From assembly GCA_016202395.1 (NCBI GenBank), contig JACQOV010000095.1, positions 1,335 to 65,334 of the forward strand: a stretch of 64,000 bases of DNA, written 5' to 3'. Below, piece after piece: positions 5,922 through 24,402 of this stretch. The notes beneath the pieces are model-generated. The model made no database searches, was not told the origin of the DNA, and was given only the letters and a program-made list of their open reading frames with translations. The position numbers were made by a program, and so were the translations under genes. This DNA comes from Deltaproteobacteria bacterium. Its GTDB lineage: Bacteria > JACQOV01. Every line of letters begins with the position of its first letter. Within the stretch, counting starts at the first letter, position 1.

Positions 5922-6140
5922 ATGAGAAGAGTGTATGTTTAGACGGTTTTCCAATGATAGTGGGATCGTCCTCCCGCGTCAATGCTGGATGGATCACGGA
6001 CATCCAAATCCTGGTTCCGTAAGCTCGAAGTTTCAGGCGGCTTTTGGGGTACTGTCCACACGGAGTAAAAACCCTAAGGCATGAAGAACAACATAAAGAC
6101 TTGAAATACTCCACAGTCATGTCAAAGTCCGCAGTCGATC

Positions 6141-6234
6141 GTCATCCCCGCGGAAGCGGGGATCCAGTTCTTTCAATGGACTGGATTCCCACTTTCGTGG
6201 GAATGACATGGGTCCCCGTTTTTACGGGAATGAC
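6141..6234. repeat. Cluster of three REP-like palindromic units, one inverted and two direct
   Basis: Unit 6141-6165 is gtcatccccgcggaagcggggatcc. Unit 6183-6207 is ggattcccactttcgtgggaatgac. Unit 6211-6234 is gtccccgtttttacgggaatgac. Each is a short hairpin followed by (G)GRATGAC. Confidence 0.75.
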
Positions 6235-6387
6235 GGATGGAGTGGCAGAATGATGTGATCCTGCCCTCATATACTCCTTCGACTCTAAATGGCGGATTGT
6301 TGCTATGGGAAAATAAAAAATCTCCTTGGAATTTTAAATCAACGACTTATAAAGGAGTGTTACGAGAATTTTTTGAGAAATAGGTCG

Positions 6388-7029
6388 TTAGTCCGCTTGC
6401 GAAGCAATTTTCATAGCTTCTAATTCTTTACGGTCACGCTCGTTACAAATTTCTGCATAAAATTCAGCTCGCTTTTCTGCATACTTCTTCTTATCTACAA
6501 AATCTAATTTGGATTTAGACTTTAGCAGTAAGATGGACGAGTATTGGCGCAACAAGAGTACATCCAACCAAAGCAGGATAAAAGATAAGAACAAAGCAAC
6601 AATAATGATTGGGCAGATACTATTTGCAACTAAATACGTTTGTGCAATATTATATAATGGATAAGAAGAAAACAGTAAAGAAAGGAGAACCACAATAATT
6701 AAATGAGCTGATTCAAGAAGACTATCCACATAATCACACCAAATATAATTTTGGATGGGATCCTTCTCAATGCGAGCAATTTTATACAAATTGTCCTCAT
6801 CTATGCTTCTTAATAGCCATAAGAGAATTCTAAACACAAAAAATAATAAAATTAATTCTACTACAAATAAAGCAATCGTCCCCCAAAGCCATGCTAAGAG
6901 ATATATCGGCTCGAAGAAATCATCCTTATCTTCATGCCAATAAAGCACCCAAGAAATGGATACAAAAAGGCCTCCAATAAAACTATATACTTCAGAACGT
7001 TTGAGTGAATTTAAAGGTAGTAAGGTCAT
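6388..7029 (-). CDS. hypothetical polytopic membrane protein with a charged C-terminal tail, in an AT-rich patch
   Basis: 213-aa ORF. Several hydrophobic segments and a strongly AT-biased codon composition relative to neighbours. No recognisable motif. Confidence 0.5.
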   Translation of the reverse strand: MTLLPLNSLKRSEVYSFIGGLFVSISWVLYWHEDKDDFFEPIYLLAWLWGTIALFVVELILLFFVFRILLWLLRSIDEDNLYKIARIEKDPIQNYIWCDYVDSLLESAHLIIVVLLSLLFSSYPLYNIAQTYLVANSICPIIIVALFLSFILLWLDVLLLRQYSSILLLKSKSKLDFVDKKKYAEKRAEFYAEICNERDRKELEAMKIASQAD

Positions 7030-20830: not shown

Positions 20831-20907
20831 GCGCCGTTAGCTCAGCTGGATAGAGCATCAGACTTCGAATCTGAGGGTCGGGGGTTCGAATCCCTCACGG
20901 CGCACCA
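20831..20907 (+). tRNA. tRNA-Arg (anticodon TCG) with encoded CCA
   Basis: GCGCCGT-TA-GCTC-AGCTGGATA-GAGC-A-TCAGA-CTTCGAA-TCTGA-GGGTC-GGGGG-TTCGAAT-CCCTC-ACGGCGC-A-CCA. Confidence 0.85.
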
Positions 20908-20949
20908 TGGTTTTTCGCTAAAATAACCAAAGAAATCCTTAGGAGTGCC

Positions 20950-21873
20950 TTATCTTTTCTCAAGAGCTGCCTTAAGCTTTCCCAATTGTTTTTTTCTCTT
21001 TTCCTTCTCCATTTTCTGAATATTTTGACATTTCCATCGGAGAGCAGGCAGGCTCTCGATACCCTGAGCGTCGATCAAATTCCACCTTGGCTCTCCTTCA
21101 TTTACAGAAAGAAGAAACTCCTTTTCGCTGTTTGAGAGTTTATCCCTTATCAACCCGGGTAGTTTCCTCTGGCATTTCATCAAATTCTCACATGAAAGAA
21201 CCATCTCCGTCATGCCACGAAAGCTGCTTTCATATTCCTTCCGAATGTCTTTACTATTCGGATCAAGTAATTCATGGATCGGACGATCGTGCCCTGCAAG
21301 ATAAATAACAAAGGCTTTTAGTATCTCTTCAGTGATCCCTTCATGCTTAAGAAGTATCATAACATCAAATAGATCGCGGGGATGCTGGCGATCAAGGGCC
21401 GCACAGAGTTTACCCGCATAAAGTTCGGGAACCGAAAGAATGTTGCTTGTCACAGACAATTCAAATTTATCCTGAGCTGTTTTTACCAATGAGCGTTTTT
21501 CCGGAGGAAAAACAGAGCCACGAAAAACAATATTGGGCTCAATCTTAACAATGCCTTCCCCCGATTTAACGACGACTTTATTTATGAATTCTACACCTTT
21601 TTCCTGTTTCTTTACCAATTGAATTGTGCAATGCATCTTCTCTTTTATTTCATTTGCTATTCGATGGAGTGCCTCTCCAATATTTTTCAAAGAATCCTCC
21701 CACCTCTCAAGGTGAAGATAGGTAAGATCGATATCAATAGAGATGCGCGGCATCTCCCTAACGAAAAAATTAATGGCCGTTCCGCCTTTCAAAGCAAAAC
21801 AATTTTCACTTGCAACGTAGGGCAAAATACGCAACATAAGCCTCGCCTGATTGAGGTAAGTATTACTATTCAT
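20950..21873 (-). CDS. nucleotidyltransferase toxin of the AbiEii/AbiGii family (type IV TA / abortive infection)
   Basis: 307 aa. N-terminal FALKGGTAINFF followed by DIDL(TY), a pol-beta-like NTase motif typical of AbiEii (DUF1814). Confidence 0.8.
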   Translation of the reverse strand: MNSNTYLNQARLMLRILPYVASENCFALKGGTAINFFVREMPRISIDIDLTYLHLERWEDSLKNIGEALHRIANEIKEKMHCTIQLVKKQEKGVEFINKVVVKSGEGIVKIEPNIVFRGSVFPPEKRSLVKTAQDKFELSVTSNILSVPELYAGKLCAALDRQHPRDLFDVMILLKHEGITEEILKAFVIYLAGHDRPIHELLDPNSKDIRKEYESSFRGMTEMVLSCENLMKCQRKLPGLIRDKLSNSEKEFLLSVNEGEPRWNLIDAQGIESLPALRWKCQNIQKMEKEKRKKQLGKLKAALEKR

Positions 21874-23489
21874 GCTTCTAACTCTTTTGTCCTGTACCGT
21901 TTTATATCTTCAAGATGCCACGGTGTAAATGTTGCTAAAATAATCTCTGAGACTTCTTTGAGCCATTCTGATGGTTTCTTTTCATAAATTCCGGGGTCGA
22001 ACATGTCAAGGATATTCTTTTGTTCATCTGTATTTCCAAACCAGTCACAGGGATGGTGAAGATAATTCCTCTCGAACATCTTTCTTCTAGAAGACAACTC
22101 ATCAAACACAATCCACACTTGCCTCGTATCGTACGGATAATGGCTGAGTTGCATAGCGGCTTCTGCAATCCTCCCATAATAGTAATTGATGAAAGAAGAA
22201 TCATCGTGGCGCCTAATTTCCGGGATGTCTGTCTTCAATTGTTTTACGCTAAGTTCTAAGTCCTCGGGCGATTGGCCAATATATTTTACCTCAACGTTCC
22301 AACGCTTATCGGCCTCTTGGTAATCAATGTCAGGTGACTTGTTGCCCCAAGCTTCAAGATCAAGTATCCTTGCGCCTTCCTGTCTAAGACGCTGAGCCAC
22401 AACAAGTTCGATTAAAGCCGCTAATGTATTGTTTGACGCCCTGCGCTGTCTCTTTAGATCGTGCTCTGGCACATGCCGTAACCAATTTTCTTTAAGCCTG
22501 TTCCTGAAATCCTTTGAACCACGCTTTTCAATATTAAATTTCTTCAAAAGTTGATCAAGGATTAGGAGTTGCTCATTTTCAAATGCCAAATAGAGCATAG
22601 ATCCAAAATAACCATGCTCTCTACCATACGTCAGTTGTATATCTTTTTCAGGACACATCAAACGTATAGCAACAGATCTCTTCCGTTTATTTTGCAATAT
22701 GCGCATCTGACGTCTGGAATCTACAAAAGGCTCACAAGGTACTGTAATATTATAAATCGGATCGAGTCTTCCTCCTTTCACAATGACACGTTTTCCTTTC
22801 CCAAAATTAACTTGGTTTAGATCCAACTGATTGACCCATTCATGTTTACATTCTTCAGCTAGAAACATAAAAAGACGCGCAACCTTTACGGATCGACATT
22901 TTTCCAAAAGTGTTTGTACAAGTTTGGGTCTAAGCGTGGTCAGCCCTTCCATCAAGAGTCTCGCAGTTTCAAAAGACTCATCCTCAGGTACAAAGTGAAG
23001 AACCTCCATGATTGCTCTTTCGGGCGATGAAATAGTAATAGTATATGTGCCTAAATCCTCTGTCGTGAAGCCTCTTCTAATATTTGGATCAAAAAGTCGA
23101 AGTGCAACATAGTGGATATCTGTACCCCAATTGTACATTATGAACCACCGTGGAAGTTTTACACATGGTGCGCCAAAAAGTGTAACATCCCCCTCTTTCA
23201 AAGGAAGAAAGTGAGCCAAACCCTGACGCTGTAGTGCCGTCTTACCACCAACGTGTATAGGCAACCCCATTTGCTGTTGAATGGCACAAAGTCCACCGGT
23301 CCATGAAACATCGTCACTTACGCGGGCAAAGGCTCCGCGACCGATTTTCTCGAGCCAACCGGACCGGTAATAAACATCTGCAAGCTGCCGATAGATGCCG
23401 TTCTTGGACAACCACGGCTGAGTAACAACGCACTGCTGAGAAATTTTTTGCAACAATTGGTTTAATTTATTCTTGTTACGACCTTTCAT
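21870..23489 (-). CDS. AbiEi-like antitoxin/transcriptional regulator with a long C-terminal extension carrying a PD-(D/E)xK-like motif
   Basis: 539 aa. The N-terminus (LNQLLQKIS..VVTQPWLSKNGIYRQLADVYYRSGWLEKIGRGAFARV) is AbiEi wHTH-like. The C-terminal region has ...SPDIDYQEADKRWNVEVKY (PD...E-V-K). Its stop overlaps the AbiEii start. Confidence 0.65.
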   Translation of the reverse strand: MKGRNKNKLNQLLQKISQQCVVTQPWLSKNGIYRQLADVYYRSGWLEKIGRGAFARVSDDVSWTGGLCAIQQQMGLPIHVGGKTALQRQGLAHFLPLKEGDVTLFGAPCVKLPRWFIMYNWGTDIHYVALRLFDPNIRRGFTTEDLGTYTITISSPERAIMEVLHFVPEDESFETARLLMEGLTTLRPKLVQTLLEKCRSVKVARLFMFLAEECKHEWVNQLDLNQVNFGKGKRVIVKGGRLDPIYNITVPCEPFVDSRRQMRILQNKRKRSVAIRLMCPEKDIQLTYGREHGYFGSMLYLAFENEQLLILDQLLKKFNIEKRGSKDFRNRLKENWLRHVPEHDLKRQRRASNNTLAALIELVVAQRLRQEGARILDLEAWGNKSPDIDYQEADKRWNVEVKYIGQSPEDLELSVKQLKTDIPEIRRHDDSSFINYYYGRIAEAAMQLSHYPYDTRQVWIVFDELSSRRKMFERNYLHHPCDWFGNTDEQKNILDMFDPGIYEKKPSEWLKEVSEIILATFTPWHLEDIKRYRTKELEA

Positions 23490-23735
23490 GATTTACATAT
23501 TACAATAACAATAAACTAATTACAAGGTTTATTATAAGTTTAAAAAGTCCATTAAAAATGGACATTAATTAAAAATAATAAACCTTGTTTTGTTATTTTA
23601 AGGATTGGTAAAAAGAACCATGCGAATATCAGTCAAGTTTCTGGTAAAGTTGAATTTGACAGGCAGCCTTGCAAACAAAACGAACGTTTTGTAGTATTTA
23701 TAAATCGGGCTTACGTACACTCAATACTTTGTAAT
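23490..23735. promoter_or_regulatory. Extremely AT-rich leader with nested inverted repeats (ACAAGGTTTATT / AATAAACCTTGT flanking GTCCATTAAAAATGGAC), upstream of the AbiEi-like gene and next to tRNA-His
   Basis: Inverted repeats read directly at about 23516-23528, 23551-23567 and 23578-23592. Likely operator/promoter or recombination site. Confidence 0.45.
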
Positions 23736-23807
23736 GGTGGCTATGGTGTAAGGGCAGCACGAGAGACTGTGGCTCTCTGAGTACGGGTTCGAATCCCGTT
23801 AGCCACC
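23736..23807 (+). tRNA. tRNA-His (anticodon GTG) with encoded G-1
   Basis: G(-1)-GTGGCTA-TG-GTGT-AAGGGCA-GCAC-G-AGAGA-CTGTGGC-TCTCT-GAGT-ACGGG-TTCGAAT-CCCGT-TAGCCAC-C73. Confidence 0.85.
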
Positions 23808-23898
23808 CTTTAAATTCCCGCCGGTGGGAATTTAACCCTGAGGTTTAGGCAGTTCATTTGCGTCTTGTGTAAAACGAATAAGTGTTTAGGCGAGGAGC

Positions 23899-24402
23899 GT
23901 GCTTAGGGGTGAAGGCCTAGAGCTAAATATGAAATCAAGAATTAAAAGAATTATAGCAAGAGAGGGGTTAATAATAATTTCTTTAGCTATTCTTGCCACA
24001 GTTTGTATTTTCTTGTCTGATTGGCAATCAGCACATATTTCAAAACCGATAGTAATTAGTCAAAGGGAACTACAGCCTATTCTAGACTTAGTAAAAAGAA
24101 TTGATAAGAAACATATTATTTGCCCAAGTGGATATAAAATTGAATTTGAGTCTTCGCCAGACAACCAAGATATTTATTGGGCGTGCCAGAATGCTAAATC
24201 AGACGGGTCGGTTAATGATTTAAGTAAAATGTCAGATAAAGAGTTGCTTGATCTGGCTGAAATCCCAATAGAGGAAAGACCCTTGGTACAAAGAATCGAT
24301 TTTTCGGCATGGGGAATGAGTTTCCTTTTAGTTGTATATCCGGCATACCTGTTGTTCCGTTTTATTTTTTGGGCCATTAGAACGCTAAGACAGAAAGGGT
24401 AA
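23899..24402 (+). CDS. hypothetical small membrane protein (AT-rich)
   Basis: 167 aa with an N-terminal TM and a C-terminal TM. No motif. Confidence 0.4.
   Translation: MLRGEGLELNMKSRIKRIIAREGLIIISLAILATVCIFLSDWQSAHISKPIVISQRELQPILDLVKRIDKKHIICPSGYKIEFESSPDNQDIYWACQNAKSDGSVNDLSKMSDKELLDLAEIPIEERPLVQRIDFSAWGMSFLLVVYPAYLLFRFIFWAIRTLRQKG

Follow-up and report, generated by a model that had tools for sequence, protein, structure and literature searches.

Within a 64,000-nucleotide stretch of contig JACQOV010000095.1 from a Deltaproteobacteria bacterium (referred to here as the window), two open reading frames (ORFs) of 539 and 307 amino acids occupy the minus strand (20950-23489) between a tRNA-Arg(TCG) gene and a tRNA-His gene. 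Few phage-defence and toxin-antitoxin systems are as abundant as AbiE, and a preliminary description of this DNA had proposed that the two ORFs form an AbiEi/AbiEii pair whose antitoxin is about twice the usual length. Searches with Pfam, PADLOC, ARAGORN and Rfam bore out both the pair and its placement, with PADLOC matching both proteins as AbiE, and the excess length of the antitoxin was found to consist of a C-terminal module that resembles a PD-(D/E)xK nuclease. The 307-amino-acid protein matched the DUF1814/AbiEii toxin family PF08843 at 1.3e-37 (130.5 bits, against a gathering score of 22.5) and the PADLOC model PDLC02290 at 6.6e-113. Its motifs KGGTAxN...SxDIDL, KxExN and AALDRQHPRDxxD were invariant in an alignment with seven partner toxins of related loci. 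The antitoxin gene comes first, and its stop overlaps the abiEii start by 4 bp (ATGA, 21870-21873); the same order and the same 4-bp overlap were present in every locus with a long abiEi that was inspected (L001, L003, L008, L021 and L022). Three features by which AbiE is recognised, namely the toxin family with its motifs, a winged-helix/antitoxin-domain AbiEi and a bicistronic antitoxin-first order, were found, and the gene pair is most simply taken as an AbiE toxin-antitoxin and phage-defence module, as a PADLOC-type annotation would name it. In one of the related loci (L003, 7638-8555), abiEii is split into ORFs of 136 and 162 amino acids downstream of an intact 546-amino-acid long AbiEi, which may represent a decayed toxin with the antitoxin-nuclease retained, or a sequencing frameshift. 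The features of the locus are collected in Table 1.

Table 1. Features of the abiE locus, in positions of the window; residue numbers refer to the 539-amino-acid AbiEi.
Feature	Position	Strand	Evidence
tRNA-Arg(TCG), left edge of low-GC patch	20831-20907	+	ARAGORN; Rfam tRNA, 72 bits
abiEii, 307-aa DUF1814/AbiEii nucleotidyltransferase toxin	20950..21873	-	Pfam, PADLOC
Long abiEi, 539-aa fusion protein	21870..23489	-	ORF; 12 full-length homologues and one partial
C-terminal extension of module, residues 468-539	21873..22088	-	alignment, AlphaFold model
PD-(D/E)xK-like core, residues 340-467	22089..22472	-	AlphaFold core model, Foldseek, residue conservation
Span of putative catalytic residues	22284..22409	-	alignments, codon positions
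Putative catalytic codons	E361 22407-22409; D387 22329-22331; E400 22290-22292; K402 22284-22286		
Helical N-subdomain of module, residues 253-339	22473..22733	-	AlphaFold helices 6-87; alignments A1, A3
AbiEi_3 antitoxin domain, residues 101-251	22737..23189	-	Pfam PF11459, 2.1e-47, model 3-157 of 157
AbiEi_3_N, winged-helix DNA-binding part, residues 6-97	23199..23474	-	Pfam PF17194, 1.1e-29, model 2-93 of 93
Predicted sigma-70 promoter of abiEi	23497..23525	-	leader geometry, alignment A7
-10 TAATAT, ends 7 nt before ATG	23497-23502	-	predicted
Third half-site AGTTTATT, within the 17-nt spacer	23510-23517	-	alignment
-35 TTGTAA	23520-23525	-	predicted
Proximal arm of outer inverted repeat, ATAATAAACCTTGT	23522..23535	-	repeat scan, alignment
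Inner palindrome GTCCATT-TTT-AATGGAC	23547..23563	.	repeat scan, alignment
Distal arm of outer inverted repeat, ACAAGGTTTATTAT (coding strand)	23575..23588	-	repeat scan, alignment
tRNA-His(GTG), right edge of low-GC patch	23737-23808	+	ARAGORN, Rfam

Because PF17194 and PF11459 both match end to end, residues 1-252 of the long AbiEi are, as judged from these domain matches, a complete AbiEi_3 antitoxin, and the PADLOC model PDLC02227 likewise matched residues 5-252 at 1.9e-84. The remaining 287 residues (253-539) match no curated family: there was no match in Pfam, PADLOC, NCBIfam or PHROGs, a profile search against PDB sequences returned only a spurious zinc-finger match, and tblastn of the module against phage and plasmid collections returned none. 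A search with the full-length protein recovered homologues of the same architecture, 12 of them full-length (527-551 amino acids) and one partial, at 44-62% identity. Throughout the 13-sequence alignment, the C-terminal part was nearly as conserved as the antitoxin part, and the junction residues F255, R260, N267 and S272 were invariant. These 13 homologues, the constant overlap with abiEii, the grouping of the long forms in one clade (see below) and the conservation of the C-terminal part together indicate that the fusion is real and selected. The possibility that the module is produced as a separate nuclease from an internal start was rejected, in that Met265 is not conserved among the long homologues.

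To define the family, the C-terminal 287 amino acids were scanned exhaustively with HMMER against 1.84 billion representatives, which yielded 97 matches at E<=1e-3, of which 36 reached E<=1e-10 and 13 reached E<=1e-30. Among these 13 strongest matches were nine free-standing proteins of 276-292 amino acids that covered the whole query, two long AbiEi fusions and one 213-amino-acid fragment; the weaker matches mostly covered only part of the domain. The module thus appears to be an uncurated family that exists elsewhere as an autonomous protein, and since full-length copies of ~280 amino acids stand free, the long AbiEi probably arose when a complete gene that already existed was joined to the end of abiEi. 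Three parts can be distinguished in the module. Its helical N-subdomain carries the invariant residues S272, E334 and W336 and is also found at the N-terminus of the free-standing homologues, its core carries N435, Y436 and Q447 in its two helices in addition to the putative catalytic residues, and its C-terminal extension carries the invariant W483 and P506, an L-A-T motif and a terminal beta-hairpin.

The preliminary description had pointed to a C-terminal PD...E-V-K signature and to a restriction-endonuclease-like domain, and both claims gained support. The signature corresponds to P386-D387 and E400-V-K402; it was retained in all 13 long homologues, as was E361, and the pattern D-x(5-22)-E-x-[KR]-[YFW] was present in most of the ~95 distant representatives. 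Loss of the signature among homologues, which would have told against the proposal, is thus not what the alignments show. When 83 sequences were aligned, E361 and D387 were invariant, and E334, E400, K402 and Q447 were conserved in at least 90%. AlphaFold (AF2) modelled the whole module with a predicted local distance difference test score (pLDDT) of 84.8 and a predicted template modelling score (pTM) of 0.86, and core residues 340-467 (from a 60-sequence alignment) with a pLDDT of 92.6 and a pTM of 0.83. Both models show the order alpha-beta-beta-beta-alpha-alpha-beta (helix 93-118; strands 122-126, 136-140 and 143-152; helices 156-168 and 178-196; strand 204-211), with E361 in the long helix 1, P386-D387 entering strand 2 and E400-V-K402 in strand 3. 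The core fold of PD-(D/E)xK enzymes is alpha-beta-beta-beta-alpha-beta (Steczkiewicz 2012, PMC3424549), and the element order predicted by the models is this canonical superfamily arrangement. The module therefore shows two hallmarks of the superfamily, that is, the core fold in the predicted structure and the conserved acidic/ExK positions together with the helix-1 Glu.

Comparison with known structures and families gave a consistent profile of matches below threshold. No Foldseek match was significant, the best E-values being 0.02 with the whole module as query and 0.14 with the core, at template modelling (TM) scores of 0.3-0.37, and the top lists consisted nearly entirely of PD-(D/E)xK enzymes, all below significance: Hjc resolvases, XisH, EndA, a tRNA-splicing endonuclease (3ajv), R2 endonuclease, N.BspD6I, HincII, PvuII, Bax1, SfsA, I-Ssp6803I, viral cap-snatching endonucleases, VRR-NUC proteins and entries named 'restriction endonuclease'. 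All 83 family members were also scanned singly against Pfam and NCBIfam, with fused domains set aside. The recurrent Pfam families were NOV_C (10 members), UPF0102 (7), Hjc (5), Mrr_cat and pPIWI_RE_REase, and the NCBIfam YraN models recurred in up to 8 members (best E 1.2e-4), again all below threshold; the 539-amino-acid protein itself gave no match at E<=1 to Hjc, YraN (UPF0102) or Mrr_cat and so falls outside the thresholds of these families. DUF559 and Vsr, which had been put forward as candidate nuclease families, were not among the matches, the nearest families being Hjc, YraN/UPF0102, NOV_C and Mrr. PADLOC models matched a few family members (PDC-M03B two, PDC-S31 one), and these matches probably belong to fused HipA-N/HTH (helix-turn-helix) and DUF2971 parts. 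The module very probably has the PD-(D/E)xK fold and is likely, with less certainty, to be catalytically competent. It appears to constitute an uncurated family of its own within the superfamily, resembling Hjc, YraN and Mrr distantly.

The long form is rare. A metagenome scan detected more than 566 AbiEi_3 relatives, and among the best 80 of these, from which ORF lengths were taken, only three were of the long form. Three others were fusions of 386-387 amino acids to an MntA-type nucleotidyltransferase, each followed by a 115-amino-acid HepT; most of the remainder were complete ORFs of 253-280 amino acids, generally followed by an AbiEii-sized ORF of ~294-314 amino acids, and the others were incomplete, whether truncated where the contig stops or for other reasons. 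A neighbour-joining tree built from the N-terminal 252 residues gathered every long form into one clade, in which a single short form (L084) was also placed. Because the long forms make up one clade, the PD-(D/E)xK fusion was a single old event that has been kept since. The nested short form (L084, 3001-4700; 262 amino acids, with an AbiEii) may reflect secondary loss of the nuclease module, or may be a tree artefact. This locus and L003, where the toxin is split and the long antitoxin is intact, would fit a module that is a non-catalytic passenger, contributing oligomerisation or stability only or being a selfish or neutral fusion: in L084 the module could have been lost and the operon kept. 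The missing significant match to a characterised nuclease would fit a passenger as well. However, even homologues at only 44% identity still have the fusion, together with an invariant active-site signature and a conserved junction, and the catalytic residues are kept in distant free-standing relatives, so that we regard a passenger as very improbable.

Other architectures indicate what kinds of partner AbiEi_3 and the module accept. The MntA fusions (AbiEi_3::MntA with HepT at L015 4001-5505 and L016 1081-2585, and also at L053, L058 and L060) are scattered polyphyletically through the N-domain tree, and the AbiEi_3 module thus seems to serve HepT/MntA systems too. Two loci (L013 572-3279 and L014 320-2190) contain a three-gene operon of a short AbiEi_3 (254 amino acids), a GIY-YIG::AbiEi_3 fusion (350 amino acids) with an apparently intact GIY-YIG motif, and an AbiEii (303 amino acids). 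This fusion appears to be a second, independent nuclease-bearing AbiEi, and since its fold is unrelated, it suggests that nuclease activity itself is what AbiEi_3 recruits. A short protein (P0034, 323 amino acids) combines Pfam HipA_C (PF07804) with AbiEi_3 and may represent either a truncated fusion of a kinase with AbiEi_3 or an artefact of gene calling. Turning to the module, it also occurs fused to a DUF2971 domain in another protein, and at L007 (1666-4030) a HipA_C kinase gene precedes the gene for a 483-amino-acid protein made up of a HipS-like Couple_hipA part, an HTH and the same PD-(D/E)xK module; this locus has the look of a HipBST-like system that carries the module on the antitoxin side. 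For the free-standing copies, no shared neighbour family was seen in the loci inspected, many of whose contigs are short. One such copy (L009 1-12903, module at 6001-6903) lies in a clear defence island, next to an EcoRI-type methylase, GmrSD_N/HNH, Shedu SduA_C, YhcG/DUF1016, two Bro-N proteins and T5orf172/MUG113.

In the principal alternative, the module would act as a sensor rather than an effector: by binding, and perhaps nicking, phage DNA structures such as replication or recombination intermediates and DNA ends, it would pull AbiEi off the operator and/or off AbiEii and thereby free the toxin. The module does sit on the antitoxin or regulator side of two unrelated toxin systems (AbiEi_3, and HipS-like plus HTH beside HipA_C at L007), and its closest structural neighbours, Hjc resolvases and XisH, are structure-specific enzymes. 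We know of no established trigger of AbiE. However, strict retention of the four catalytic residues over 83 sequences argues for chemistry and not for binding alone, the free-standing copies have no partner gene to regulate, and the GIY-YIG fusions to AbiEi_3 are hard to read as sensors. We consider sensing possible and, overall, rather unlikely.

RNA, and tRNA in particular, could instead be the substrate, with the module trimming the nucleotides added by AbiEii from tRNA 3' ends, and so serving as an enzymatic antitoxin that repairs the target, or cleaving tRNA as a second hit on translation. HipA-family kinases impair tRNA charging, as does AbiEii, so that both linked toxin types converge on this step, and the superfamily includes tRNA-splicing endonucleases, one of which (3ajv) is among the Foldseek matches noted above. 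AbiEii homologues (MenT) extend tRNA acceptor stems (PMC7450476 and PMC10435456). On the other hand, most of the structural matches act on DNA, there are free-standing homologues that have no AbiEii with them, and ~95% of the related AbiEi_3 antitoxins do without the module, which is thus not needed for antitoxicity. An RNA-directed role is therefore, in our view, improbable.

The leader of abiEi (23490-23736) bears on the control of the operon. It had been described as below ~25% GC with nested inverted repeats, and it is indeed AT-rich, although at a measured 28% GC the figure was slightly overstated. The repeats were recovered in full, as two perfect 14-nt outer arms around an inner palindrome; none of 500 dinucleotide-preserving shuffles reached 14 nt (mean 7.8, maximum 12). 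The distal arm holds a family-conserved GTTTAT half-site about -97 from the ATG, and the proximal arm holds a family-invariant AAAC (an inverted half-site) at about -44. Leaders of 18 long- and short-form AbiEi_3 loci from unrelated contexts were aligned (A7), and the invariant or nearly invariant elements were GTTT(A) at ~-100, AAAC at ~-45, the TTG of the -35, the GTTT in the spacer, the TA of the -10 and the ATG. The inner palindrome occupies the same position in the relatives with another sequence: that of L020, GACAATT-TAA-AATTGTC, differs from the one in the window by two symmetric double changes that keep the palindrome, and many short forms have AACAAG-N5-CTTGTT. A scan also flagged the inner hairpin as an intrinsic terminator on the minus strand, which was rejected as a general explanation because the stem is only 7 bp and the palindromes of the relatives lack T-runs.

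The geometry TTG-N19-21-TAnnnT-N6-8-ATG was found in 45 of 53 unique AbiEi_3 leaders (loci L020-L095 and the window), against 0.36 expected from shuffles, and a Shine-Dalgarno motif was found in none of the 53. With the end of the -10 at ~7 nt from the ATG and no Shine-Dalgarno motif, the mRNAs of AbiEi_3-type abiE operons appear to be leaderless. The recurrence of the half-sites and of the promoter geometry in dozens of unrelated AbiEi_3 contexts means that 23490-23736 is best read as a putative promoter-operator of the AbiEi_3 subfamily. For other AbiEi proteins, both negative autoregulation and operators with inverted repeats have been established, as cited in PMC11375011 (Hampton 2018 and Beck 2020) and PMC13621843; by analogy, the AbiEi_3 repeats may serve as an operator in autoregulation.

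Of the two readings first offered for the leader, the autoregulation operator is thus favoured, and the second, a site of recombination or integration through which the module came to lie between the tRNAs, can be weighed against the setting of the locus. Its position between two tRNA genes and the low GC of the patch (0.40 versus 0.50 in the flanks) would suit such a site. The GC content is 40.4% between the tRNAs and 50% and 49% in the 10-kb flanks, and for this reason the abiE module is probably foreign, horizontally acquired DNA; housekeeping genes flank it, those for cytochrome oxidase subunit II and SCO1/SenC to the left and one for an acyl-CoA dehydrogenase to the right. However, no integrase or recombinase ORF was found between the tRNAs, and no att-like direct repeats flank the module, the sole 13-mer shared by the two tRNAs being the universal T-loop GGTTCGAATCC. 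Neither mark of a tRNA-targeted integrative island (an integrase or recombinase, and att repeats derived from a tRNA 3' end) is therefore seen, and the same repeats with the same spacing to the ATG recur at AbiEi_3 loci in unrelated contexts without tRNAs. We judge a recombination site to be extremely improbable. An empty Arg-His site was sought via the neighbouring SCO1/SenC protein, which led to only three distant loci (45-49% identity) with no tRNAs nearby.

Several smaller observations concern the surroundings. The tRNA-Arg gene encodes its 3' CCA (within 20900-20907), whereas the tRNA-His gene does not and has its G-1 encoded at 23736; this difference is of passing interest in that AbiEii/MenT toxins act on tRNA 3' ends. 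To the right of tRNA-His, a 167-amino-acid ORF (23899-24402) has two predicted hydrophobic segments and no Pfam match, and the stretch around it is of even lower GC (0.34-0.37), so the foreign patch may extend past tRNA-His. A perfect 8-bp palindrome, ACAAAACG-AA-CGTTTTGT (23675-23692), lies ~45 nt upstream of tRNA-His within a weak promoter-like stretch, TTGCAA-17-TAGTAT. This region is possibly the promoter region of tRNA-His itself, a gene now split from tRNA-Arg.

Taken together, these data are best read as a horizontally acquired AbiE abortive-infection operon of the AbiEi_3 type whose antitoxin-repressor captured a free-standing nuclease gene at its 3' end and thereby gained a nuclease arm, a reading that in our estimate is about as likely as not. 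The N-terminal winged helix of AbiEi would bind the GTTTAT/ATAAAC half-sites and the palindrome overlapping the sigma-70 promoter and would so repress the operon, the abiEi mRNA being leaderless. The AbiEi_3 domain would hold the AbiEii nucleotidyltransferase inactive, and AbiEii, once active, would block tRNA acceptor ends, as its homology with MenT suggests. The C-terminal module would be a metal-dependent endonuclease, a nucleic-acid-cutting arm directed most likely against invading DNA, which, tethered to the antitoxin, would complement the tRNA-directed growth-arrest arm. The gene architecture, the domain boundaries, the retention of the catalytic residues, the predicted fold, the rarity and single origin of the fusion and the recurrent promoter-operator layout are results of these comparisons; DNA binding at the repeats, leaderless transcription, nuclease activity, its substrate and any role in defence we infer from them. 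An active enzyme is favoured because the catalytic signature is kept over deep divergence, because the module is autonomous elsewhere, including in a defence island, and because a GIY-YIG nuclease was independently joined to AbiEi_3.

Some points weigh against this reading. Conserved catalytic residues are no proof of catalysis and do not tell a DNA from an RNA substrate. A nuclease that is constitutively active while attached to a repressor would put the host at risk, so that some hidden control must exist. A sensor accounts for the fusion of the module to HipS-HipB-like antitoxin parts no less well than an effector does. The fusion was not found in any phage, plasmid or cultured genome, and to our knowledge AbiEi_3 operators are still without experimental characterisation.

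The long AbiEi is a rare, conserved variant of the well-known AbiE with a previously undescribed added domain; it is not a new kind of system or a new principle, and our literature search found no paper linking AbiEi to a PD-(D/E)xK fusion. A nuclease-bearing antitoxin bears on how AbiE may sense infection and on roles of antitoxins beyond repression and neutralisation, and a lineage with an apparently active nuclease may offer a direct experimental handle on the antitoxin, repressor and nuclease functions. The uncurated PD-(D/E)xK family turns up repeatedly in toxin-antitoxin modules or next to them, and in a defence island, and the AbiEi_3 module combines promiscuously with several enzyme domains. 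The putative promoter-operator, in which three GTTTAT half-sites and a variable palindrome accompany a leaderless start, makes a testable model for the AbiEi_3 subfamily as a whole. In a wider and more doubtful proposal, the module would be a new defence-nuclease family and a portable infection sensor that cuts phage DNA structures: fused to antitoxins, such as AbiEi here and HipS-HipB-like proteins elsewhere, it would couple recognition to the release of toxins that block tRNA charging, and alone, it would act as a single-gene defence within defence islands. If true, this proposal would fill in the trigger step that is still missing from accounts of AbiE-type systems.

The closest known systems are the type IV toxin-antitoxin and abortive-infection system AbiE, as found in Lactococcus and Streptococcus agalactiae, the MenAT systems that Mycobacterium tuberculosis carries, and an AbiE of the AbiEi_3 type in Serratia (PMC7725324). 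The locus shares with AbiE and MenAT an overlapping two-gene operon, a DUF1814/AbiEii toxin with all its motifs, an antitoxin composed of a winged helix and an antitoxin domain, and inverted repeats in the promoter region. It differs in the extra 287-amino-acid C-terminal module of the antitoxin (539 versus ~265 amino acids) and, from AbiE and MenAT outside the AbiEi_3 subfamily, in the operator layout and the apparent leaderless start, which are features of that subfamily. The module carries E...PD...ExK at the canonical core positions as do Hjc, YraN/UPF0102, the Mrr catalytic domain and NOV_C; unlike them, it has a helical subdomain of ~90 residues before the core and an extension of ~70 residues after it, and its invariant S272, E334, W336, R440, Q447 and W483 are absent from the definitions of those families. 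Its free-standing relatives are solitary, with an N-terminal accessory domain and a PD-(D/E)xK core, as in Shedu (SduA) or Mrr type IV enzymes, although unlike these the module itself is without a PADLOC model. The union of AbiEi_3 with an enzymatic domain in a toxin-antitoxin operon has parallels in GIY-YIG::AbiEi_3, AbiEi_3::MntA with HepT, and HipA_C::AbiEi_3. In GIY-YIG::AbiEi_3 the nuclease is N-terminal and there is a second, short AbiEi_3 gene, and this fusion, like the one described here, precedes AbiEii, whereas the MntA fusions are paired with HepT and arose several times, compared with once for the PD-(D/E)xK fusion.

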